From: an uncultured archaeon
GTDB taxonomy: Archaea > Thermoplasmatota > Penumbrarchaeia > JASLWR01
NCBI GenBank assembly: GCA_964342815.1
Contig: CAYFHS010000048.1
Location: 1 to 20,373, forward strand
Length of the DNA: 20,373 nucleotides
Direction: 5' to 3'
Shown here: in pieces, positions 4,637 to 20,373 of the stretch
How the letters are laid out: each line of letters begins with the position of its first letter
Position numbering within the stretch: position 1 is the first letter of the stretch
Translations under genes and position numbers: made by a program
The notes under the pieces: generated by a model
Databases searched by the model: none
The model's input: only the letters and a program-made list of their open reading frames with translations
What the model was told of the DNA's origin: nothing

Positions 4637-5427
4637 AGATCGCACTGGTCCAGACCCCATCCGTAATTGGTGAGGTTGATGCCAATATCGCTAAGATCGG
4701 GAAGTGCATGGGGGAGACCGATGCAGAGCTTTTGATATTCCCCGAAATGTTTCTCACCGGCTACAACATCGGTGACATGTTCTTTACACTTGCTCTCGAT
4801 ATCGAGGGAGCCGAGATTGAAAAGCTCGCAGCCCTTTGCCGTAATAATGAAAAATCAATTATTTTCGGTATTCCAAGGAAAGACGACGTGATACGCGGTG
4901 AAGTTCTCAACAGCTCCGTGGCAATAGGTGCGGACGGAGAGGTAACCTTTTACGACAAGTGGCATCTCCCGAACTTCGGCCCCTTCGATGAAAGGCGCTA
5001 TTTCCGGCAGGGCCATCACCTTGGAGTATTCGAGATAAATGACATAAAACTCGGCCTTATCATCTGCTATGACATCTTTTTTCCTGAACTCACCAAACAA
5101 TACGCCCTCATGGGCTGTGACGGCGTGGTCTGCATATCCGCCGCCCCGTCCATAACTTTAAGGTTTTTCGAGGCCATCGTTCCGGCCCGAGCCATCGAGA
5201 ACACTATCTTCATGATCTACTCGAACGTGATAGGTAACGAAAAGAATTTGGTCTTTAAAGGCGGGGGGCAGGTCTGGGGGCCGCGGGGCGACCGAAAAGT
5301 ACGGGCGGAAGATTTCACTGATTGTATCGTTGAGCTTGACCTTGATATGGCAGAGGTTGAAACAGCAAGGAGACTGCGCCCGGTTCTCAAAGATACCAGG
5401 ATCGAGGGGCTGTTCTCGGATGATTGA
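4633..5427 (+). CDS. Carbon-nitrogen hydrolase (nitrilase superfamily)
   Basis: Glu-Lys-Cys triad motifs IFPEMFLTGY, YDKWHLP..FDERRYF and ICYDIFFPE, plus RAIEN. ATGA overlap with the xseB stop. Confidence 0.93.
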   Translation: MKIALVQTPSVIGEVDANIAKIGKCMGETDAELLIFPEMFLTGYNIGDMFFTLALDIEGAEIEKLAALCRNNEKSIIFGIPRKDDVIRGEVLNSSVAIGADGEVTFYDKWHLPNFGPFDERRYFRQGHHLGVFEINDIKLGLIICYDIFFPELTKQYALMGCDGVVCISAAPSITLRFFEAIVPARAIENTIFMIYSNVIGNEKNLVFKGGGQVWGPRGDRKVRAEDFTDCIVELDLDMAEVETARRLRPVLKDTRIEGLFSDD

Positions 5428-7072
5428 ATTTCACGGTGAAAAGGATACTAAGTATGACGATAAGTGGTATGGGGTACCCCCCAAGGGCGAGCGACCCCTG
5501 CCCGAAAAATGGAGATTCCCCTGGGGAATATACCCACCACCGGGTAAGTGGATTTACCTCCTTGAGATACTGATGGTCATAGGGATCGAGTTCGGCCTAT
5601 GGAGTATTTACAGGTGGTTGAGCGCACCCTACATCAGTCCCTTCGGCAGTCTTAAGTTCTACATCGCCCACATCATCGCCGCCCCCACCATACACCTGGT
5701 CCCGATCCTCCTGTACTGGAAGTTCATTCTAAAGGAGAGAGGGCACCCGTTCACATTCACCCGGACCCGCATCATGAGCGGGGTCATGATCGGTCTATTG
5801 AGCGCCATTCTTTGGCGGGTTCTGGAGATGCTGACCTACGACACATTATCCGGTGTTGCAGGCGGGAGCGAATTCGGGACACTTGGATTCTTCAGCGTTC
5901 TTGATACGACCACCGTCCTTCTTTTCGCCATCATGACCTTCACTCATTTCTGTATCGTTGGGCCAGTGGAGGAGCTGCAGTTCAGGGGATTCACCCAGGA
6001 CCAGGCCGCGAGAGTGCTGCCAAACTGGCAGGCGGTGGTCTTTGCATCGATCCTGTTCGGGCTCAGTCACGTTCCCATAGCCATAACCGTTTACAAGATG
6101 CCCATCGAACAGCTCATAGTGGCCGAGATCGGGTGGATGACCGCGGGAGCGGTATTTGGCGCCCTGTACCTGTGGTCGAGAAACATATATGCTGTAATAA
6201 TAATGCACGGCATGGGGAACTGGCAGCTTTCCGTTTTCTTTTTCCAGAGCAGGGCCACTGCCGAGGGAATGAGTACAATGACGGATGTTACGGTGGGTAC
6301 GCTCACCTCCCTCATTGTGAACGCGATAATGATCATTGTTTTCTATCTAATATTCAAGTATTACTGGGAGCCGCAAAGAAAACAGAATGCAGCCATTACA
6401 CGGCCTTTTCCCATCGTCCAGAAAAGGATATTTGCCCATGATTACGGTAAAAGACCAATAAAAGCTACTTCAGTTAGACTGGCTGCGTTCAGTGTGGTGG
6501 TTTGCGGGCTCATTATGTTGGCCGCCTTTACCGTTGGGGAAACCGATTATGCCATGCTGGCTGCAATATCCGCCGAGCCATCGGAAGATATGGTTGATAT
6601 TAGCTCTTATGTGTTAGAAGAGGAAACGGTAACCGGGTCAGAGTATCTGAGCGAAGGTAATTTCATTACCATACCCTACAACTCAGAAGATGAGAAATAT
6701 ATTTCAGGGATTGCGGTAACACTCACATGGACCGATGAACCGGACATCCAACGTCTGCGGCGCTACGAGAATCAGCCGGATACTTTCTCATTGGAGCTGA
6801 ACGGTCCCAATATCACTGCTAGTGACAGCGGAGCCAATCCCCGAAATGGCGAAGGCACGATCTCGGCAGCACGGTCAATTCCATCCGAGGATATTCCCGA
6901 TATCATATCCACGGAAGGATACAATTATACGGTTGATGTGCTGATTACCATGGAGAAGGCAGGCAATTATGATGCGCGAGTTGGAGCTGGAGTGGTCAGC
7001 CTTGTGGATGGGGGGAACCAGTTTGACTACGAGATAATCATAGCTTGGTTTGTGCCCGAACGGACTCAATAA
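5420..7072 (+). CDS. CPBP (Abi/Rce1-like) intramembrane glutamic protease with a C-terminal extracytoplasmic domain, 550 aa
   Basis: Multiple TMs; motifs GPVEELQFRG, SILFGLSH and IIMHGMGN; acidic soluble domain after the last TM. Start at ATG 5420 overlaps the nitrilase stop (ATGATTGA). Confidence 0.88.
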   Translation: MIEFHGEKDTKYDDKWYGVPPKGERPLPEKWRFPWGIYPPPGKWIYLLEILMVIGIEFGLWSIYRWLSAPYISPFGSLKFYIAHIIAAPTIHLVPILLYWKFILKERGHPFTFTRTRIMSGVMIGLLSAILWRVLEMLTYDTLSGVAGGSEFGTLGFFSVLDTTTVLLFAIMTFTHFCIVGPVEELQFRGFTQDQAARVLPNWQAVVFASILFGLSHVPIAITVYKMPIEQLIVAEIGWMTAGAVFGALYLWSRNIYAVIIMHGMGNWQLSVFFFQSRATAEGMSTMTDVTVGTLTSLIVNAIMIIVFYLIFKYYWEPQRKQNAAITRPFPIVQKRIFAHDYGKRPIKATSVRLAAFSVVVCGLIMLAAFTVGETDYAMLAAISAEPSEDMVDISSYVLEEETVTGSEYLSEGNFITIPYNSEDEKYISGIAVTLTWTDEPDIQRLRRYENQPDTFSLELNGPNITASDSGANPRNGEGTISAARSIPSEDIPDIISTEGYNYTVDVLITMEKAGNYDARVGAGVVSLVDGGNQFDYEIIIAWFVPERTQ

Positions 7073-8550: not shown

Positions 8551-9525
8551 CTATATATAACTCGACGCAAACCATACGAGCGACGAAATAGCCCCCAGGA
8601 TAACCATTGCGTTTCCGAGGCTGGATTTCTTATCCCTTACTGCAAAAAACCCAAACAGACCTCCCAGTATGCCCAGCAGGACCGGGGCTGCGAACCAGGC
8701 ATAATCGAAAGCGTCCAATTCCTCGTCCCCCGGTGCTTCTGTTACTCTCTCTTCCTTCTGGACCGGAGCTTCCGGAAGATACTCCTGCCTCGCTTCGGGG
8801 AGCAGTGGTGGTTGTATCCTCGCTTTGGCGGGTTCCGGGCTTGGAATCCCGTAATCGTAGGGTTCCCTTCCCGGACCTTCTTCTTCCCAGCTATCCTCCT
8901 CCGCGTAATCCTCCCCCTCTTCCGGCCAGCTCTCCACCATTTCCTCCTCGACGAACTCGGCTTCCACCAATTTCTCCTCTTCTTCCATCTCCATCTCTTC
9001 TACCTCTTCCGCCTCCGGTTCCTCTGCCTCCTCTCCCTCTAATTGATCGGGTCCGGGAAGAATCGCATATGGTTTTTCGTAAACCTCGCCCTGGTGAAGT
9101 TTGAATGATTTCATCTCGATATTTATCGGATCGATTACCACTGCGGACTGGTATTCCTTCTTGAACATCCTGATCTGCGTGTCCTTGTCGGTGGGTGACA
9201 TGAAAGAGGTATGGCCCGGGTGGGAGTGGTACCAGCCCACCAGAAGATAATCCAATCCGTCTTTTTCGAATTTGTCCAATTTCTTGAAGAGTGGCTCGAA
9301 ACTGGCAAATTTCACCGAAACCGCCGTGGTATCGAGGTCCGAGGTGACAACATCTTCCACAACGGTGTATTCCCTGCCCTCCCACTCGTACTTGTGACCC
9401 ACCATGAAACCCATGACCTCGAGCTGGATGTCCCTGAAATCCTTGCAGTGTTTCAGCATCTTGAGGGCTGCATTCTTCTTTATGAACAGATCGATGTGTT
9501 CGTCCTCAAAGATAGGGTTGATCAC
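8551..9525 (-). CDS. JAB/MPN+ (JAMM) metalloprotease, Rpn11-like, with an acidic linker and a C-terminal two-helix membrane anchor, 324 aa
   Basis: E36 in EVMGFMVG; intact HxH-x7-S-x2-D motif (VGWYHSHPGHTSFMSPTD, nt 9228-9187); VIDP. GTG start with SD AGGAGG. Two hydrophobic segments at the C-terminus. Confidence 0.93.
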   Translation of the reverse strand: MINPIFEDEHIDLFIKKNAALKMLKHCKDFRDIQLEVMGFMVGHKYEWEGREYTVVEDVVTSDLDTTAVSVKFASFEPLFKKLDKFEKDGLDYLLVGWYHSHPGHTSFMSPTDKDTQIRMFKKEYQSAVVIDPINIEMKSFKLHQGEVYEKPYAILPGPDQLEGEEAEEPEAEEVEEMEMEEEEKLVEAEFVEEEMVESWPEEGEDYAEEDSWEEEGPGREPYDYGIPSPEPAKARIQPPLLPEARQEYLPEAPVQKEERVTEAPGDEELDAFDYAWFAAPVLLGILGGLFGFFAVRDKKSSLGNAMVILGAISSLVWFASSYI

Positions 9526-9552
9526 TGCAAATCTCCTCCTTTAATGGATAAT

Positions 9553-9690
9553 TTATAGGAATTTAGATAGGTATTCCTTCATCTTGGAAAAATCGGTCTT
9601 GCCGGGTAGATAGGAGAATTCCAGATCCTCCGGGGGCTCCTTTTCCTTCGTCTCCTTCTTTGTCTCGCTTACTATCTTGGGCAGTGCCAT
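9553..9690 (-). CDS. Unannotated 45-aa protein (MALPKIVSETKKETKEKEPPEDLEFSYLPGKTDFSKMKEYLSKFL)
   Basis: ATG lies 1 nt after the E2 stop (TGA-T-ATG), filling the gap between E2 and JAB, in the same reading frame as JAB. Below the ORF-track size cutoff. Confidence 0.7.
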   Translation of the reverse strand: MALPKIVSETKKETKEKEPPEDLEFSYLPGKTDFSKMKEYLSKFL

Positions 9691-9691
9691 A

Positions 9692-10210
9692 TCAATCACT
9701 TCTCACTATCTTCGGCCCCCCCCTGGTGGAGGATACTATGCCGGGCGGATGATAATCGTGTGTGGCGAAATACTGTGCGGCGGCCATGCAGCTTTGGGAT
9801 CCATAGGGGCTCCGCGGATTGGGCATTGACAGCAGCGATTCGATACCTTGAATGAACGCTAGAAGATTGGATTGAAAGTTCCAGGTATCGAGAAGCCGCG
9901 TGCAAACATAACCTCCGTCCTCGGGAACCATGATGTTGGGGTGAAATATATCCGTATGCCACCTGACTATCGGTTTCTGGTAAGGATAATTATTTGTTAT
10001 CTTCATGGTGAACTTGTGATTCCATGCATGGGTTATCCGGTTGTCCTTTAATTTGGGTCCCGCTATCTTTTTCATGTTTACTTCGATGGTAACGGGAAAA
10101 CCGTTCACTTCGGGATCGTCCACTAATATCTCGTGCACCAGTTTTCTTTTGCACATTGCGATCTCCTGGAGCACTCGTTTCCGTAGAAGGTCTTCGGGCA
10201 GTTGAGGCAT
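9692..10210 (-). CDS. Ubiquitin-conjugating enzyme E2 (UBC fold), 172 aa
   Basis: YPYQKPIVRWHTDIFHPNI (H90-P91-N92, nt 9943-9935), catalytic-position Cys103 in GGYVCTRLL (nt 9904-9902), W..QSNL and ESLLSMPNPRSP match the eukaryotic E2 pattern YP..PP.V.F.T.IFHPN...G.IC...L...LL..PNP.SP. Start placed at ATG 10210 (MPQLPED). Confidence 0.9.
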   Translation of the reverse strand: MPQLPEDLLRKRVLQEIAMCKRKLVHEILVDDPEVNGFPVTIEVNMKKIAGPKLKDNRITHAWNHKFTMKITNNYPYQKPIVRWHTDIFHPNIMVPEDGGYVCTRLLDTWNFQSNLLAFIQGIESLLSMPNPRSPYGSQSCMAAAQYFATHDYHPPGIVSSTRGGPKIVRSD

Positions 10211-13731: not shown

Positions 13732-13807
13732 ATCTTAACACAATAATTTTTTCCCCAATTCCTGAACGTATGCTGGGAATTGTCTAACATAACATAGAGG
13801 AATGCAA

Positions 13808-16800
13808 ATGAATGAATTAAAAAAACCAAACCGGCCCCATAACCGATACGTTAAAATCGGAATATGGATCGTCCTGTCGGCACTAATACTGGCAGGGCTG
13901 GCAATCATCGTTGGAGTCGCCTTCGAGGAATTCGGAGGCGAGCGAGCATCCATCGAAGAAATCGTATATATGCCACAGCAGCACGATTATTCGAGAGGTA
14001 CGTCGACCTTAAGCTACTCCATGGCGGCGAGATATTCGGATGGCAGCATTGGATCCCTGCCGGATGTGAACAGGAATGAATTGTTCTTGGGAACAACGGA
14101 TACGATTAATACCGATACCGATGGCATGGATAAAGAAGACCGTACCCGAAAAACCGAAGAAGGCGCAGAATTCAATTTTTCATATACCGGAAGCGCACAA
14201 TCGTGGGAAGTGCCGGACAATGGAATCTATAAATTGGAAGTTTGGGGTGCCCGGGGAGGTTATTGTTATGCGAATTACGGAAAAGGGGGGAAAGCATGGG
14301 GTGAGCTCGAATTGACCAAGGGCGAAACCCTAAAAATCTATGTTGGTGGTAGTCCGGGCAATTCTCGTAACGGAGGATTTAACGGCGGCGGTAACAATCG
14401 AACCGGTTCAGGTGGCGGAGGAGGTGGAGGTACCGATATACGGAGAAATGGAGATGCAATGGCAAATCGTATAATCGTTGGCGGAGGAGGCGGTGGTACT
14501 GCATGTTCGTCCAATTCTCATGGAGGTGATGGTGGAGGAAACGAAGGGAAGCACGGCTATCGCTTTGGGAATTATAACGACCATTATGCCGGAGGAGGTG
14601 GCACACAGAATGGAGGAGGTCGAGCCGGGGGATGCTGCGGCGCCCAGCCGGGTCAACTTGGCCGAGGCGGAGATACTGCAACGGGGGATGATTGCGGTGC
14701 TGGCGGTGGCGGTTACTATGGTGGCGGCGGTGGCTCCAACGATTCCGGGGGCGGCGGCGGTTCATCTTATTACGCGAATCTTGATAATGGTGGAACCCAG
14801 GCCGGTGATAATGACGGCCATGGAAAGGTGAAGATCACCTTCGTTCAAGGCGGCGGCGGCTCCGCGGTATACGATTACAAATACAAGGATGGAACCGGCA
14901 TATCTAAGGATTTCACATATACCGGGGGACAGCAATCGTGGGTGGTCCCCGGTGGAACCAAGTTCATAGATGTGGACGCATTTGGTGGTGAAGGAGGGTC
15001 CGGAGGAAAGGGCGGTCAAATTAAAGCTAGACTAACGGTGACACCAGGTGAAACACTTTACATCTATGTTGGTGGAAAGGGAGCTAATCAGCACGGAAAC
15101 CGTTCCGGAGGCTGGAACGGAGGCGGCCAGGGAGGAAGTTCCAATGGAGGTCGCTACGGTGCCGGAGGCGGTGGGGGTACTGACATTCGCCGAGGCGGAA
15201 CAGGATGGGCTAACCGGATATTGGTGGCTGGCGGCGGCGGCGGTTATTACGGTGGCGGCGGCGGCGGTGCAGGTATAACGACTTGTTGTGGTGATAGTTC
15301 AAGAAACGGCAATTCTGGATCACAGGGTACTGGAGGCAAAGGTGGTGACGCACAGGATGGTTGTGCTTCTGGATACAATAATAATGGTGGTGACGGTGGA
15401 AAAGGAGGCGGGACCACAGGGGGTAATGGCGGAAGATATCGTGGATCGGGTAATCCCGGTAATGGAGGAACCCAAAACGGCGGCGGTTCCGGAGGCTCAA
15501 AGGCTGGTCAATGTGATGCCGACCAGATATCCGGTGGCGGCGGCGGTGGTGGAAGCAGCTATGCCAAATCAGGCAGCAAAAATATAAAACATACCCAGGG
15601 AGTGCATTCCGGGAACGGTAAAATTAAAATTTCGACACCTCCGGAAATCCTTGGCGTATACTATCAGGAACCGTTTTCCGATGAATTCAAGGATTCGGAA
15701 TTTGGACCTGCCTGGAGCCCTTACAGCAGCGACGATGAAAATGCCCGAAACGAGAGAATCGATACCGAACCGGGCAAGAAAGAGAAAGCAAAATTCACTT
15801 TCACCAACTGCACCCAGACCGGAAGGAACGGCCCTTCACAGGGGCAGGTAAATACAGCCTACGGCAATTCCAACTTAAATGGGAAGGTCACGGTCAGTAA
15901 TGGCGTTCAAAGTTGGGTAGTACCAGAAACCGGCAAGTATACCATCGAAGTTCAGGGTGCCGTAGGAGGCAAATCGAGATACGGCAGCGCGAATCCCGGG
16001 AAGGGGGCGAAAATGAGTGGTGAATTCAATCTGACGAAGGGTGAGACCATCTATGTTGTGGTTGGCCAGAAGGGGCTTCAGTGCCAGAGCTGGGCCAATA
16101 GTGCAAATGGAGCTGGTGGCGGTGGCGGTGGAACCTTTGTCTATAAAGCCAACAAAACCCTCCTCATCGCTGCGGGCGGTGGCGGCGGTGCCGGTCATGT
16201 CAATGCCAGAAATCCATATTACCACGGCATGGACGCTGTTACAGGGACCACGGGTACTGAAAGCAGGGGAAGAAATCCCGGTGGTTCAAACGGCAATAAC
16301 GGTAGCGGCACTTCCGGTGGAAGAGGATGGAATACGGTGAAGAATAATCCCATCGGAGAACCCTGCAGAGGCTGGGGCGAGTTCCAGGCACATGGTGGAT
16401 TTGGCGGCGGCGGCGGAAATTATTATCACGACGGCGGCGGCGGCGGTGGTTATTCCGGCGGCGGCGGTAACCGCGGCGGCGGCTCACCGACCTCATATCC
16501 GGCTGGCGGCGGCGGCGCTTCCTACAACAACGGTGCCAACAAGGATGACAAAGCCGGGGTAAATACGGAAGACGGGAAAGCCATGTTCATACAATATGAA
16601 GTAATTAACGACCCGGGTTTCGATGCATATGATGAGGAGGAACAGGGTACGACCTGCTGGGTAATGGACACTGCCGGTGCCAGAGGTGCCAACCTGAATC
16701 AGCTTCTGCTCCACATAGGCCTGGATGCCGGAGAAGGATCGGTCACAAGTTTGAAACTCTCGTTTGCAGCTGAGGTTTATGGTACTACCGAAGTAATGCC

Positions 16801-19800
16801 GGCCAGTTTCGGAGTGAATATGCTTCCCCATAACTATGACGGCGTTGCAGTGAGTATTGACAATGAGAACTGGTACAAGGTATGGTCGCCGAATTCAGCG
16901 GCAGAATGGGCATTGATCGAGAACAAAAATTTATTGAGCATTCTTCCAAATAGCTCCGTTGATGCGAAAGAAGACCTGTATATCCGGTTCCAGCAGTACG
17001 GGAGCGGCAAGATCAAAACCGAGGGAATTCTCTGGGACGAGATCTATCTCGAATCGAACGCGGATGTTGAATACATTTTCGAGGTACCGCAATTGAACAT
17101 TGGATTCGAAACGGCACCCGATCCGTTCACAATCTATGCTGAGACCCAGGGAGATCCTGATTCTGCTACCGTAAAAGTAAAGCTGTCCGGCTCTATCGGT
17201 TTCGACTGGGAAGGCGGCGCTCGTGGTCCTCGAGCCGAACCGATTGTTTACAATTTTTCAAATGCCGGGGCTTCAGGTAGATCCGGTCCTACTCAAGGCC
17301 AGGTGAATTCAGCTTATTCGAATACGAATTTAAAGGATCTGGTCACCATCAGAACCCGCGGAATACAGGAATGGAAGATACCGAAAAAAGGTGAATATAC
17401 TTTCACGGTAAAAGGGGCTGAATCTGGAACGGATCGCTATGGTGCCAATTATACCGGAAAAGGGGCCAGCATGCAAGGTACCTTCGAATTGGAAGCCGAT
17501 CAGGTCATAAAGATCCTGGTAGGCCAGAAAGGGGATAATACCGGATTTTGTTGCGGTTCGGCAGGTGGTGGCGGTTCGTTTGTGACGAAATCGGACAATT
17601 CGCCGCTGATAATCGCAGGTGGCGGCGGTGGAGCAAGAATGGATAGTGGTGGTACCAATCGTAGCTTCCAGGACGGAACTACCGGTAAAAATGGGCGAAA
17701 TGCTTATTATCGCGGTGAGAACGGTGGAACTGGAGGTACCAATGGTAATGGTGGCAGATGGAATCGGTCCGGATGCGGCGGAGGTCCGGGAGGTGGGTTA
17801 TCTGGTGATGGAGAAAATGGCGGCGGCTGCAGGGGTTCCGGAGGTAAGGCCTTTAAGAACGGTGGCGAAGGTGGTGTATCTTCTTACTGTGGTGGTACCT
17901 CTGGATTTGGCGGCGGCGGCGGAGTGGGCTGCGGCGGTGCGGGAGGAGGAGGAGGATATGGCGGTGGCGGTTCTGTTGACTGGGGAAGCGCCGGTGGCGG
18001 AGGTTCCTATAACGATGGTACGGAACAGAGCAATCAAGCAGGTGCGAATTCTGGGAATGGAAGCGTTACAGTCACATATATTGGTGGTGGAGATCCCATT
18101 GCCGAGGAGGTCAGGTTTACCTACGAAAAGGCAGAAGGTCTGGTCATTGATGGAGATGCTGACATTGAAGAAGTAACCTGGTCATCTGCAGATGAGAACG
18201 AAGAAGATGCATTACTTGATGGAGACGAGTTCGAGATCGAATTCGATCTTTCGTCCCCTGACGGGTTTTACGACAGTATCGGCCCTGCAACGGTTTCTTA
18301 CTTCTCTTGGGATGGCGATGAGATCGAATATGTTCTACCTATACCCAACTTGAGAATACAGGCTTTTTCCTATGCAAAATTGGAAGGAGAGGTTATAGCA
18401 AATAACGGTGCCGAACAGAATGATCCTGGTTCACTTTTGGCCATGGAATCATATGACGACCAGGACCCACCGGGCGTCATGCCGGGTCAGGTATTTACCA
18501 ACTGGCGTGCTAAGGACCTTGGCGACAGCGTGGAATTCATTGACGCCATAGATAATGCAACGGGTCAACCGTTCACCCACAAGAAGATAATCAGGGTTAC
18601 CGGTGGAAAACCCGGTGATACGGGAACTGTTTATACAACCCACAAGGCATCCGGGGAAGAGGATGGATACCCCGTCACCCTTGTTTCAGGTCCGGTTGCC
18701 CAGGGTAGCATCTACCAGCAGGAAACTTACGTCGTAGGTGAGACCGGTGTTATCTCAGTCGCCCTTGAGGATGATTACGGAAATGCCTGTGTCGATTGGA
18801 AGGACCGCATGTATGTGAAAGTGACCGCCGGTAAGGTGGAGTTCGAGGATAAGCTAGAAAATGATGCCACCGGAGACTACTACATGTATACTGCCAAGGA
18901 CAAGGGGGTCCATGATTTCATCATCACCCCTTTAACCTTCCATGCCATAGGCCCGACCGTCATCGAGTTCAAGACCGTATCCGTTCCCATCGGTGAGCCT
19001 GCCAGCCTCAAAGTCGTGGCGGGTCCGGTAAAATCCCTGCATGTTGACTACGACCCGGCAAACATGCCCGGATGGGATGGTTCATACTATGCCGGTGAGG
19101 AGCTGTATTTCACTATCTACGGCACTGACAAGATGGGTAACCCCTCCTCAACATATGATGCACCGATAATCGTGACCCATGATTTCAAGACCGAGAACAA
19201 GGAACTTGTTCCTGATCCGTGGCAGAGCAGTGACGGTGCAGTTATCTTGAACATGGTTGACGGTGTGGCCGCCAACTATCCCGATACGCCTATCAAGTTC
19301 TATGGTGCTGGCGAAGTAAGCCTGACATTCCGCTCGAAGGTAAATCTGGAAGGAATTAACGGATACACCAAGAAGATCACAGTGAATCCCACCTATCTTG
19401 ATCACCTGGAGGCAATGCCCGGCGGTCCTGATGCTGCGCCTGTAACGGTTGACGTGAAAGTGGGAGAAACCCAGTTCTTTTCCGTCAAGGGCTTCGACGA
19501 GTTCGACAACCCAATCGAGATCGATAGCACAACCTGGCGTGTGGATGCTGATATCAAGGCCAAGGAGACCCCCGATGTTCTGAATAATGGTGAGTTCAAG
19601 GCCATAGAGTACTTCGGCCCCAATGACGAAGGTGTCGTCTTTGACGTTGATCTGGGTTTATCCACAAGAAAAGGCAATGTTGAGGTTACTGCTGTCTGTC
19701 CCCGCGACCAGCGGGAGATAAAACGTGATATCTCAGTTCGAGTTTTAAATGACAAGGACGTGTGGCTGGATGCCAGCGATATCGAGCCTGAACATATACT

Positions 19801-20373
19801 TGCCGGACACGAGATGAACTTCAAGGCGAATATCTATTACGATATGCCCGTGACCGATCCGGGAACCAAGGACCAGGCTTCCGCCCTGGGTGATCTCTTC
19901 GAGGTCACAGTGATCGTGTCTCTCGTAGATAAGGACGGAAAGAATCCCTTCGAGCTTGTAAGGGAGCCGATCAGGTTTGAAGACCTGAACACCAATCCCG
20001 ATGGTATCGAGAGTTTCAACGTGAAGGTACCCTGGGAGAGTTTCAGCGATAACATCAAAGTATGGGAAGACGGTAACGACGACACCAAGAACTATCTGCT
20101 TGTCGAGGTAGATGAGGTTATCGGGGGAACTGACATGAAGCTCTTCGAGAAGACCAATGACAACAACCGGGTTACAGTGGAGCTGTATACCGTTGGAGCC
20201 CCTGCTGCGTCCCAGACACCGTCATTCGCCCCATCAGTTGCGGCAATGGGTATTGCTCTTCTGGGTCTCGCTGTAGGGAGCACTTTCTACTCTGGCAAGA
20301 GGCGGAAAAAAGGCTACCGAGGGGACCGCGAAGCTGTTTCTCCAGTTATCGCCATCATCCTCATGGTGGCCAT
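13808..20373 (+). CDS. Giant cell-surface protein, 3'-partial (>2188 aa): signal/TM, 4 ALK/LTK-type Gly-rich domains, jelly-roll and Ig-like/CARDB stalk, TPSF-TM-basic tail, internal class III (type IV pilin) signal
   Basis: Translated by hand in frame 2 from ATG 13802/13808 to the window end with no stop. All + strand track ORFs in this region are in other frames. N-terminus MNELKKPNRPHNRYVKIGIWIVLSALILAGLAIIVGVAF; C-terminus ...TPSFAPSVAAMGIALLGLAVGSTFYSGKRRKKGYRGDREAVSPVIAIILMVA. Confidence 0.92.
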   Translation, partial: MNELKKPNRPHNRYVKIGIWIVLSALILAGLAIIVGVAFEEFGGERASIEEIVYMPQQHDYSRGTSTLSYSMAARYSDGSIGSLPDVNRNELFLGTTDTINTDTDGMDKEDRTRKTEEGAEFNFSYTGSAQSWEVPDNGIYKLEVWGARGGYCYANYGKGGKAWGELELTKGETLKIYVGGSPGNSRNGGFNGGGNNRTGSGGGGGGGTDIRRNGDAMANRIIVGGGGGGTACSSNSHGGDGGGNEGKHGYRFGNYNDHYAGGGGTQNGGGRAGGCCGAQPGQLGRGGDTATGDDCGAGGGGYYGGGGGSNDSGGGGGSSYYANLDNGGTQAGDNDGHGKVKITFVQGGGGSAVYDYKYKDGTGISKDFTYTGGQQSWVVPGGTKFIDVDAFGGEGGSGGKGGQIKARLTVTPGETLYIYVGGKGANQHGNRSGGWNGGGQGGSSNGGRYGAGGGGGTDIRRGGTGWANRILVAGGGGGYYGGGGGGAGITTCCGDSSRNGNSGSQGTGGKGGDAQDGCASGYNNNGGDGGKGGGTTGGNGGRYRGSGNPGNGGTQNGGGSGGSKAGQCDADQISGGGGGGGSSYAKSGSKNIKHTQGVHSGNGKIKISTPPEILGVYYQEPFSDEFKDSEFGPAWSPYSSDDENARNERIDTEPGKKEKAKFTFTNCTQTGRNGPSQGQVNTAYGNSNLNGKVTVSNGVQSWVVPETGKYTIEVQGAVGGKSRYGSANPGKGAKMSGEFNLTKGETIYVVVGQKGLQCQSWANSANGAGGGGGGTFVYKANKTLLIAAGGGGGAGHVNARNPYYHGMDAVTGTTGTESRGRNPGGSNGNNGSGTSGGRGWNTVKNNPIGEPCRGWGEFQAHGGFGGGGGNYYHDGGGGGGYSGGGGNRGGGSPTSYPAGGGGASYNNGANKDDKAGVNTEDGKAMFIQYEVINDPGFDAYDEEEQGTTCWVMDTAGARGANLNQLLLHIGLDAGEGSVTSLKLSFAAEVYGTTEVMPASFGVNMLPHNYDGVAVSIDNENWYKVWSPNSAAEWALIENKNLLSILPNSSVDAKEDLYIRFQQYGSGKIKTEGILWDEIYLESNADVEYIFEVPQLNIGFETAPDPFTIYAETQGDPDSATVKVKLSGSIGFDWEGGARGPRAEPIVYNFSNAGASGRSGPTQGQVNSAYSNTNLKDLVTIRTRGIQEWKIPKKGEYTFTVKGAESGTDRYGANYTGKGASMQGTFELEADQVIKILVGQKGDNTGFCCGSAGGGGSFVTKSDNSPLIIAGGGGGARMDSGGTNRSFQDGTTGKNGRNAYYRGENGGTGGTNGNGGRWNRSGCGGGPGGGLSGDGENGGGCRGSGGKAFKNGGEGGVSSYCGGTSGFGGGGGVGCGGAGGGGGYGGGGSVDWGSAGGGGSYNDGTEQSNQAGANSGNGSVTVTYIGGGDPIAEEVRFTYEKAEGLVIDGDADIEEVTWSSADENEEDALLDGDEFEIEFDLSSPDGFYDSIGPATVSYFSWDGDEIEYVLPIPNLRIQAFSYAKLEGEVIANNGAEQNDPGSLLAMESYDDQDPPGVMPGQVFTNWRAKDLGDSVEFIDAIDNATGQPFTHKKIIRVTGGKPGDTGTVYTTHKASGEEDGYPVTLVSGPVAQGSIYQQETYVVGETGVISVALEDDYGNACVDWKDRMYVKVTAGKVEFEDKLENDATGDYYMYTAKDKGVHDFIITPLTFHAIGPTVIEFKTVSVPIGEPASLKVVAGPVKSLHVDYDPANMPGWDGSYYAGEELYFTIYGTDKMGNPSSTYDAPIIVTHDFKTENKELVPDPWQSSDGAVILNMVDGVAANYPDTPIKFYGAGEVSLTFRSKVNLEGINGYTKKITVNPTYLDHLEAMPGGPDAAPVTVDVKVGETQFFSVKGFDEFDNPIEIDSTTWRVDADIKAKETPDVLNNGEFKAIEYFGPNDEGVVFDVDLGLSTRKGNVEVTAVCPRDQREIKRDISVRVLNDKDVWLDASDIEPEHILAGHEMNFKANIYYDMPVTDPGTKDQASALGDLFEVTVIVSLVDKDGKNPFELVREPIRFEDLNTNPDGIESFNVKVPWESFSDNIKVWEDGNDDTKNYLLVEVDEVIGGTDMKLFEKTNDNNRVTVELYTVGAPAASQTPSFAPSVAAMGIALLGLAVGSTFYSGKRRKKGYRGDREAVSPVIAIILMVA
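14171..14845 (+). repeat. Gly-rich ALK/LTK-like domain, copy 1
   Basis: FNFSYTGSAQSWEVP...YKLEVWGARGG...GELELTKGETLKIYVGG...GGGGGTDIR...IIVGGGGGG...GGGGSSY...GHGKVKITF. Confidence 0.85.
14909..15634 (+). repeat. Gly-rich ALK/LTK-like domain, copy 2
   Basis: DFTYTGGQQSWVVP...DAFGGEGG...LTVTPGETLYIYVGGKG...GGGGTDIR...ILVAGGGGG...GGGGSSY...GNGKIKIS. Confidence 0.85.
15794..16597 (+). repeat. Gly-rich ALK/LTK-like domain, copy 3
   Basis: FTFTNCTQTGRNGPSQGQVNTAYGNSNL...GVQSWVVPETGKYTIEVQGAVGG...GEFNLTKGETIYVVVGQKG...GGGGGGTFV...LLIAAGGGGG...GGFGGGGG...GGGGGGYSGG. Confidence 0.88.
17249..18082 (+). repeat. Gly-rich ALK/LTK-like domain, copy 4
   Basis: YNFSNAGASGRSGPTQGQVNSAYSNTNL...GIQEWKIP...GTFELEADQVIKILVGQKG...GGGGSFV...PLIIAGGGGG...GFGGGGG...GGGGSYN...GNGSVTVTY. 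Confidence 0.88.
18730..19560 (+). repeat. Three Ig-like stalk repeats carrying a D-x-x-[GD]-N motif
   Basis: VGETGVISVALEDDYGN (~18734-18784), AGEELYFTIYGTDKMGN (~19091-19141), VGETQFFSVKGFDEFDN (~19460-19510). Followed by a CARDB-like segment ending EKTNDNNRVTVEL. Confidence 0.6.

Follow-up and report, generated by a model that had tools for sequence, protein, structure and literature searches.

How does an archaeal genome come to carry genes for an E2 conjugating enzyme and an Rpn11-like deconjugase side by side, with neither a tag nor an activating enzyme next to them? The question is raised by contig CAYFHS010000048.1 (assembly GCA_964342815.1) from an uncultured archaeon of the Thermoplasmatota class Penumbrarchaeia, a stretch of 20,373 nucleotides that is called the window here. 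Three linked genes lie co-oriented on its minus strand and encode a UBC-type E2 (9692-10210), a micro-protein from a short open reading frame (micro-ORF, 9553-9690) and an Rpn11-like JAMM protease (JAB, 8551-9525). The original prediction had described three co-oriented, linked genes of a probable non-Asgard archaeon, set among housekeeping genes without defence or mobile genes and with no ubiquitin-like protein (Ubl), E1 or RING protein encoded in the window, and all of this has held. The open reading frames are those expected, profile searches detect no Ubl, ThiF/E1 or RING gene within the window, and the E2 homologs are named 'Thermoplasmatota archaeon' or 'Thermoplasmata archaeon'. By Pfam, the neighbouring genes encode the housekeeping proteins PriS, an adenosine-specific kinase, an Fe-S protein and a Na/H exchanger, and no nucleotidyltransferase, effector or mobile-element gene is present within the window. 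The trio is very probably the conjugation and deconjugation half of a dedicated Thermoplasmatota ubiquitin-like tagging system, whose E1 and tag are encoded on other contigs of the same genome. The module is real and probably functional, and it represents no orphan and no system of a new kind.

The E2 (172 amino acids, from ATG 10210 to TGA 9692-9694) belongs to the Pfam family UQ_con (PF00179), which it matches with an E-value of 1.4e-13 and 51.1 bits against a cut-off of 27. The HPN motif, the catalytic cysteine and the PNPxSP flap that had been read from the sequence are indeed those of an E2, as H90-P91-N92, Cys103 and P130-N131 of the flap (PNPRSP) are invariant among 16 E2 homologs, and P132 is nearly invariant. 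In the PDB, 235 E2 sequences match the protein at E <=0.01, the best being the eukaryotic E2-C and UBE2A at about 1e-10; no NCBIfam model is reached. A scan with this single protein returned 12 loci, and the match from the same genus (97% identity) comes from a marine Thermoplasmatota metagenome-assembled genome (MAG). More distant matches belong to Methanomassiliicoccales, Methanomassiliicoccaceae and Methanomethylophilaceae, and the stretch itself occurs in public marine and seawater metagenome runs from several studies.

The JAB (324 amino acids, from GTG 9525 to a stop at 8551) matches the Pfam families JAB (PF01398; 2.6e-10, 40.6 bits, cut-off 22.5) and Prok-JAB (PF14464; 2.2e-6). Its JAMM/MPN+ catalytic core, delimited by Pfam, PDB matches and conserved columns, comprises residues 1-160 (9046-9525) and contains E36, H100-S-H102, S110 and D113, of which E36, H100, H102, S110 and D113 are invariant among 24 JAB homologs. 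Against the PDB, the protein matches Rpn11 at 5e-15, the Caldiarchaeum Rpn11 at 3e-12, CSN5 at 1e-10 and AMSH at 5e-3, while it scores 30 bits against the desampylase model, which has a cut-off of 130. Since its closest solved relatives are Rpn11, the Caldiarchaeum Rpn11 and CSN5, the enzyme is correctly called Rpn11/CSN5-like; these matches, the low desampylase score and the fold of a fused homolog support the earlier view that it is closer to Rpn11 and CSN5 than to short prokaryotic JABs. The core is followed by an acidic low-complexity linker (residues 161-270, 8716-9045; 39% Asp+Glu and 12% Pro by composition) and by a predicted C-terminal membrane anchor (8551-8715), in which Kyte-Doolittle analysis places hydrophobic helices at residues 275-297 and 302-324, immediately before the stop.

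To find the other components, profile searches were extended to the whole genome and to the phylum, as the original prediction had suggested, and they recovered a Ubl, an E1, a second E2 and a second JAB in the source genome. The window is contig C48 of that MAG, which is labelled G000 (4.35 Mb, 116 contigs, 89% complete). The phylum survey covered 401 evenly sampled Thermoplasmatota genomes from 162 genera, in which G-numbers denote genomes, f-numbers families and L-numbers loci; the window's own family is f1, G077 is a genome of the same genus, and G158 belongs to another family of the same class. Altogether, a ubiquitin-like tag ending in GG, an E1, an E2 and a JAB are all encoded by G000, spread over four contigs (C6, C15, C22 and C48), which agrees with the earlier suggestion of a 'split' system.

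The tag precursor, encoded at C6:2529-2771 and followed by the second JAB (292 amino acids), is 80 amino acids long and ends in ...PDPEGG-C. It is modelled as a beta-grasp fold (pLDDT 88), and its top 50 fold matches in the PDB are SUMO, Hub1, ubiquitin, NEDD8, ISG15 and the Caldiarchaeum ubiquitin, with no SAMP, ThiS or MoaD among those 50. No NCBIfam model is reached by this protein either. In 41 Ubl orthologs the C-terminus reads ...LIPDP(E/T)GG followed by 0-8 variable residues, as would be expected of a modifier trimmed back to its GG. The E1 is a solitary 274-amino-acid ThiF-family protein on C22, which matches UBA1, SAE2 and UBA7 at about 1e-28 as opposed to 1e-18 for ThiF/MoeB. Its type is characterized by an invariant Ser-Cys pair and by CxxC and CxxH zinc ligands (n=7 orthologs). 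The second E2 is solitary and lies on C15. In the E2 tree, the window-type and C15-type copies fall into two clades, each of which contains families f1 and f6 (supports 85/88 and 99/93), so the duplication of the E2 predates the family.

In relatives, these parts are found together. The E2 is present in 90 of the 401 genomes (49 of the 162 genera) and the Ubl in 99. According to a hand count of coordinates, the Ubl occurs in 86 of the 90 E2-positive genomes, and in 72 of these 86 it immediately precedes the E2 in the same orientation (likewise counted by hand). In the other 14 of the 86, which come from four families (f1, f6, f27 and f30), the two genes are on different contigs. The E2-JAB adjacency, which had been named as a point on which the prediction could fail, holds at 26 of the 30 best loci. 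Four genomes (G304, G361, G101 and G258) carry E1-Ubl-E2-JAB as four adjacent genes, and the relatives with such a single operon include Methanomassiliicoccales. G148 has E1-Ubl-E2 with no JAB match, and G004 and G054 have Ubl-E2-JAB with no E1 match in the fetched stretch; every E1 found at these operons is of the C22 type. Furthermore, G158 has the order E1-Ubl-E2-microORF-JAB, and by comparison with this five-gene arrangement the trio in the window is its 3' half.

Two further features of the relatives concern how the enzymes are joined and inherited. Single-chain fusions of E2 and JAB occur in G158 as open frames of 692 amino acids (L104:1518-3596, minus strand) and 552 amino acids (L105:3895-5553, plus strand), and such natural fusions argue that both activities act together. 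As a side observation, the HSH motif of the JAB part in the L104 fusion reads HSAP, so this copy may be inactive, and the protein ends in a zinc ribbon. The gene order around the trio (CBS, Na/H exchanger, PriS, E2, micro-ORF, JAB, adenosine kinase, Fe-S protein) is kept in two other genera of the family, and the cassette is near-universal within families (14/14 genomes of f10; the Ubl in 41/48 of f11). Such near-universal and syntenic occurrence is what a core gene set would show, rather than a defence island with its patchy distribution.

The micro-ORF raises a question of its own, namely what a separate gene of this size does between a conjugating and a deconjugating enzyme. It encodes 45 amino acids, starting at ATG 9690, one nucleotide past the E2 stop, and ending with a stop at 9553-9555, and it is translationally coupled to the E2. 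Its existence had been noted before; the GTG start listed for it at 9699 and the length that went with it have been corrected to ATG 9690 and 45 amino acids. The frame is followed by TAA-ATT-ATC-CAT-TAA, thus by two in-frame TAA codons (9553-9555 and 9541-9543), and then by a ribosome-binding site for the JAB, AGGAGG, read from the sequence at 9535-9540 on the minus strand, ahead of GTG 9525. The product contains a PKIV motif, a stretch rich in Lys, two adjacent prolines (three, PPP, in fused forms), the beta-strand LEFSY and a short helix. It matches no NCBIfam or PADLOC model, but five public protein clusters of exactly 45 amino acids match it at 78-96% identity.

The identity of the micro-protein comes from its relatives. 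It aligns to the N-terminal module of fused JABs, in which M-x-K-I-[TSV]-x-E-x-K-K, P-P-P and I-x-F-x-Y are followed by a short helix, and the JAB in the window starts where the core of the fused proteins starts. Judged by this alignment, the micro-ORF represents the N-terminal module of the JAB in detached form, a feature that is new here, and it is not a Ubl. The micro-ORF is separate in four genomes of the window's family and, bounded by stops, in G158. The micro-ORF and the JAB share one frame in G000 only, while they are in different frames in G077, G170 and G083. Together with the separate reading frame in G158, these differing frames exclude stop-codon read-through as a way of joining the two parts and indicate that the split is old and stable. 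In addition, comparison with G077 gives 15 synonymous changes and one non-synonymous change (dN/dS about 0.01), the ratio against G083 is 0.13, and the range across G077, G170, G083 and G158 is 0.01-0.19. By this measure of substitutions, strong purifying selection acts on the micro-ORF, and an interpretation of the split as a pseudogene was rejected in view of this selection and of conservation.

Structure prediction suggests how the two chains may fit together. A fused homolog is modelled with a pLDDT of 88, and above 90 for the N-terminal module, with Rpn11 (4o8x_B) and the Caldiarchaeum Rpn11 homolog as best matches. In a two-chain model, the JAB core of the window and the micro-protein reach an ipSAE of 0.82, the best of three controls being 0.02. 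The same mark was attained for 58 out of 80 solved complexes, compared to 2 out of 110 mismatched pairs, a calibration that applies only roughly, as the complex model was built on our own unpaired alignments. The model runs share at least 86% of their contacts, and the pLDDT of the partner is at least 74. In these models, the micro-protein contributes a strand, residues 22-31, that pairs with residues 150-158 of the JAB, and its C-terminal helix lies against the first helix of the JAB; residues 14-45 are predicted with high confidence to complete the JAB fold. Since the chains are halves of one ancestral polypeptide, a passing model is partly expected and is no proof of binding in the cell.

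Alternatively, the micro-protein might be a free regulator or adaptor instead of a JAB subunit, with its PKIV-type N-terminus binding the Ubl, the E1 or the E2. Residues 1-13 are in line with such a role, as they lie outside the confident interface although I6, E9 and K12 are invariant, and so is the coupling of the micro-ORF to the E2, together with the motif P-[KR]-I-[VLI], often followed by acidic residues, that is found at the end of most E2s of the clade and at the start of most fused JABs. It may be noted separately that in the window itself the E2 tail ...GPKIVRSD (9695-9718) resembles the start of the micro-protein, MALPKIVSE (9676-9690). As residues 14-45 are predicted to complete the JAB fold and are covalently part of the JAB in most lineages, a purely free regulator is unlikely; the two roles are, moreover, not mutually exclusive.

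A gene for a small RING-finger E3 is absent both from the window and from the canonical four-gene operons. RING-like fingers do, however, occur next to the operon in relatives. In G004 (L076:2-8131) and G016 (L020), the Ubl gene is preceded, at a distance of about 100 nt, by the gene of a giant protein with a C4HC3-type finger at its end, the open frame in G004 being 3155 amino acids long. In G036 (L107:3-5654), a protein of more than 1880 amino acids ends in a RING-like finger 25 nt before the E2, and in G158 (L105:1955-2932), a 325-amino-acid protein with a C-terminal RING-like finger follows an E2. The fingers have the pattern C-x2-C...C-x-C-x4-H-x2-C...C-x2-C, and three of the four bearers are giants of more than 1800 amino acids. 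G000 itself has 14 zf-RING_2-like matches (E <=0.01), mostly at the ends of frames of 1000-2700 amino acids, compared to none in 14 control genomes. Because RING-tailed giants abut the operon in relatives, E3 candidates exist, and they are to be taken as leads and not as demonstrated ligases. The window also contains a giant, an open frame of more than 2190 amino acids (13802-20371, plus strand) that runs off the contig and matches the ALK/LTK glycine-rich domain in three stretches (E 3.7e-41); the C-terminal end, at which relatives of such giants have their RING fingers, lies beyond the contig.

Several points weigh against a dedicated tagging system with the window trio as its conjugating and deconjugating half. 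With a completeness of 89% and 116 contigs, extra copies or a linked operon may be present in unassembled DNA of G000, and as the parts of the system are unlinked in this genome, linkage assigns no E2 to a particular JAB. The contigs of two metatranscriptome libraries match positions 9740-9903 and 9977-10132 (E2) and 9393-9542 (JAB start) only, and they are short and unstranded and may stem from DNA carry-over. None of these contigs falls on the micro-ORF, which indicates neither expression nor silence. Only one of the 14 RING matches in G000 is above the Pfam cut-off and none adjoins the genes of the window, the calibration of the complex model is rough, and the literature search found no biochemistry reported for any member of the clade.

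The original prediction had favoured another explanation, in which an E2 and JAB pair without its own modifier borrows a SAMP/ThiS-type protein and a UbaA/MoeB-type E1 or conjugates something other than a Ubl. The lack of Ubl and E1 genes in the window agrees with borrowing, as does a MoeB/UbaA-like E1 on C17 of the same genome, which reaches 217.9 bits against the NCBIfam model of the SAMP-activating E1, for which the cut-off is 450. This E1 adjoins thiazole-synthesis genes, however. Similarly, in family f13 a MoeB/UbaA-type E1 is found some 1.8 kb away from a second Ubl-E2 pair (L099:115-3837 on contig C82 of G016, and L100 on contig C47 of G004). A tight operon was rejected in this case, as a HAD hydrolase gene and two unassigned reading frames stand between the E1 and the pair, and the proximity may be due to chance. 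Against borrowing, G000 has a ubiquitin-fold Ubl on C6 and a UBA1-like E1 on C22, whose orthologs share an operon with the E2 and the JAB across the phylum. A dedicated and co-operonic tag and E1 make borrowing from SAMP/UbaA very improbable, and neither this claim nor that of a non-ubiquitin modifier is supported. SAMPylation in Haloferax uses SAMP1-3, UbaA and HvJAMM1 and relies on an E1 only, without an E2. The present system resembles it in having an archaeal GG-terminated Ubl, a ThiF-family E1 and a JAMM deconjugase, whereas here an E2 is central, the tag is of the ubiquitin type and not of the ThiS/MoaD type, and the operon E1 is not the UbaA-like one.

It could also be supposed that the locus is a decaying remnant, that is, a non-functional E2-JAB fragment with an interrupted JAB N-terminus on its way to loss. 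The two in-frame TAA codons between the micro-ORF and the JAB in G000 would suit this, as would the dispersal of the parts and the presence of spare paralogs. On the other hand, no catalytic residue has been lost, the restart of the JAB has a strong ribosome-binding site ahead of it, and the synteny is kept across genera. Furthermore, the micro-ORF has stayed separate, in differing frames, in G077, G170, G083 and G158 under the selection described above, and the RNA-library contigs cover the E2 and the JAB start, with the same proviso of DNA carry-over. Decay can hardly be credited on this evidence.

The chance that the trio is an anti-phage or conflict module of the Bil or CBASS (cyclic-oligonucleotide-based anti-phage signalling system) Cap2/Cap3 type is close to negligible, as the PADLOC matches are weak (JAB 8e-7; E1 against Cap2 E1-E2 models 9e-13; C6 JAB against BilC 1.3e-5) or, for the E2 and the Ubl, lacking, eukaryotic E1, E2 and Rpn11 are matched far more strongly, the housekeeping synteny is fixed in three genera, the cassette is near-universal in whole families, and the window is free of the nucleotidyltransferase, effector and mobile-element genes looked for.

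For the dedicated tagging system, we infer the following history and sequence of enzymatic steps. The ancestral form was probably one operon, E1-Ubl-E2-JAB, and in the window's class E1-Ubl-E2-microprotein-JAB. In the window's family, this operon has probably broken up and been partly duplicated, leaving the E1 on C22, the Ubl with a JAB on C6, the E2 on C15 and the trio in the window. In the proposed cycle, a JAB would first trim the residue or residues that follow the GG of the Ubl, and the E1 would then adenylate the Ubl and carry it on its invariant cysteine. The Ubl would next be passed to Cys103 of the E2 and from there to lysines of target proteins, possibly assisted by the RING tails of giant membrane proteins. 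Finally, the JAB of the window, presumably tethered to the membrane via its acidic linker, would remove or recycle the tag near the membrane. The micro-protein would complete this JAB by providing an edge beta-strand and a helix that other lineages have in the same chain.

The C6 locus that encodes the tag extends over C6:2529-7403 (L009). Beyond the Ubl and the second JAB, which carries a helical N-terminal domain of about 140 amino acids, its opposite strand codes for a membrane protein of 95 amino acids and a polytopic membrane protein of 1085 amino acids. The larger of the two carries an acidic tail as well as an AAA ATPase domain at the C-terminus, and it might be a partner for membrane extraction or unfolding.

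A broader picture, doubtful when all of its parts are taken jointly, would be a membrane-proximal signalling or quality-control machine in large-genome Thermoplasmatota, made up of RING-tailed giants, duplicated E2s, the split and tethered JAB, the AAA ATPase and a handle resembling a SUMO-interacting motif (SIM). In such a machine, giant surface proteins with cytoplasmic RING tails would be the E3s or the substrates, charged by the duplicated E2s. The tethered JAB with its 45-amino-acid subunit would reverse the mark, and the polytopic AAA ATPase from C6 would extract tagged proteins. The PKIV-type motif of the E2 tail and of the micro-protein would serve as the SIM-like handle for the tag, a contact that is conjectural. 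If true, this would amount to a non-Asgard pathway resembling endoplasmic-reticulum-associated degradation or receptor ubiquitylation.

Complete operons of ubiquitin, E1, E2, RING and Rpn11 genes are known from Caldiarchaeum and Asgard archaea, and the Caldiarchaeum cascade has been reconstituted together with its Rpn11 (PMC3082918, PMC5654768, PMC6043591). Like these, the G000 system has a ubiquitin-fold tag with GG, often made as a precursor with extra residues, a UBA-like E1, a UBC E2 with HPN and Cys, and an Rpn11-like JAMM protease, and the Caldiarchaeum Rpn11 and ubiquitin structures are among the best sequence or fold matches of the G000 proteins. The differences are that the phylum is Thermoplasmatota, that the E1 is minimal (about 250-275 amino acids), and that RING fingers end giant proteins, in contrast to the small RING gene in the Caldiarchaeum and Asgard operons. 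Furthermore, the single operon seen there is matched in relatives but not in G000, where the parts lie scattered and both E2 and JAB occur in two copies, and the JAB of the window is predicted to be membrane-anchored, with its N-terminal module in a separate gene for 45 amino acids.

Compared to the canonical Thermoplasmatota cassette E1-Ubl-E2-JAB, the E2 is 40-60% identical and the JAB core 40-50%, the JAB follows the E2 in the same order, and the Ubl and E1 belong to the same families. In G000, by contrast, the E1 and the Ubl are on other contigs, an extra E2 and an extra JAB are present, and the JAB of the window has its N-terminal module in a separate gene and carries an acidic linker and a membrane hairpin. 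The window system is therefore a dispersed and elaborated variant of the Thermoplasmatota cassette. A similar C-terminal anchor is found in the JABs of G077, G083, G004 and G158, and the JAB of G158 also has an acidic linker. What is new here is the split Rpn11-like enzyme with a micro-protein subunit, its membrane tether and the links to RING giants in relatives.

With eukaryotic Rpn11 (PSMD14) and CSN5, which are the best matches of its core, the JAB shares the zinc site E...HxH...S...D. It differs from them in its predicted membrane tether, and neither a lid or signalosome scaffold nor an MPN- partner is in evidence here. The JAB is, moreover, tandemly duplicated in sister genomes, with two genes downstream of the E2 in G170 (L082:4545-6624) and a single double-JAB protein in G083 (L080:9762-11294) and in G158 (L102:2985-4544). 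The arrangement brings to mind the MPN pairs of Rpn8-Rpn11 and CSN5-CSN6; here, however, the HSHPG motif is kept in both tandem copies, and both look active. The bacterial CBASS Cap2/Cap3 and Bil systems likewise encode E1, E2 and JAB activities together in a prokaryote. The Thermoplasmatota genes, however, give weak or no PADLOC matches, lack an E1-E2 fusion, a CD-NTase (cGAS/DncV-like nucleotidyltransferase) and an effector, and form a core, syntenic and vertically inherited set.

In the literature, Thermoplasmatota E2s were found mentioned only in passing, as one clade of a tree, and the search found no paper that describes or tests the operon. The tree is an E2/UEV phylogeny with a 'Ca. 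Thermoplasmatota E2' clade (bioRxiv 10.1101/2023.07.25.550441). A review named Aigarchaeota as the best archaeal candidate and left Thermoplasmata unmentioned in that context (Koonin 2015), and for Euryarchaeota only RING and UCH genes, from one Marine Group II genome, were reported (Grau-Bove 2015). The original prediction had allowed for a canonical operon elsewhere in the genome that is already described; no full operon is found in G000, while full operons do occur across the phylum and their E2 clade has appeared in that one preprint. Ubiquitin-type E1-E2 tagging is usually ascribed to eukaryotes, Asgard archaea and Aigarchaeota, and here its genes are found in about one fifth of the sampled Thermoplasmatota genomes. 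The locus also illustrates the break-up and diversification of an operon of this kind. The small subunit of its naturally split Rpn11-like enzyme would be a micro-protein, which may escape gene callers, and the RING-tailed giants are concrete E3 candidates for a system so far described as lacking an E3.

A few minor features of the window and genome remain to be mentioned. A tRNA scan and an Rfam scan of the window gave no match. On C2 of G000, a weak ubiquitin-like domain (108475-108687; E 0.03 against Pfam ubiquitin and 3.6e-5 against the C6 Ubl) starts an open frame of 511 amino acids; the domain is shared with G077 and G170 and appears to be an integral UBL, not a modifier. Near the start of the window, the minus strand encodes a protein of 563 amino acids (117-1808) with a eukaryote-type Ser/Thr kinase domain (Pkinase 6e-33) after an N-terminal region of about 300 amino acids that is assigned to no family. 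On the plus strand, a gene at 5330-7072, which overlaps the end of the preceding C-N hydrolase gene, encodes a protein of 580 amino acids with an Rce1-like CAAX prenyl endopeptidase domain.

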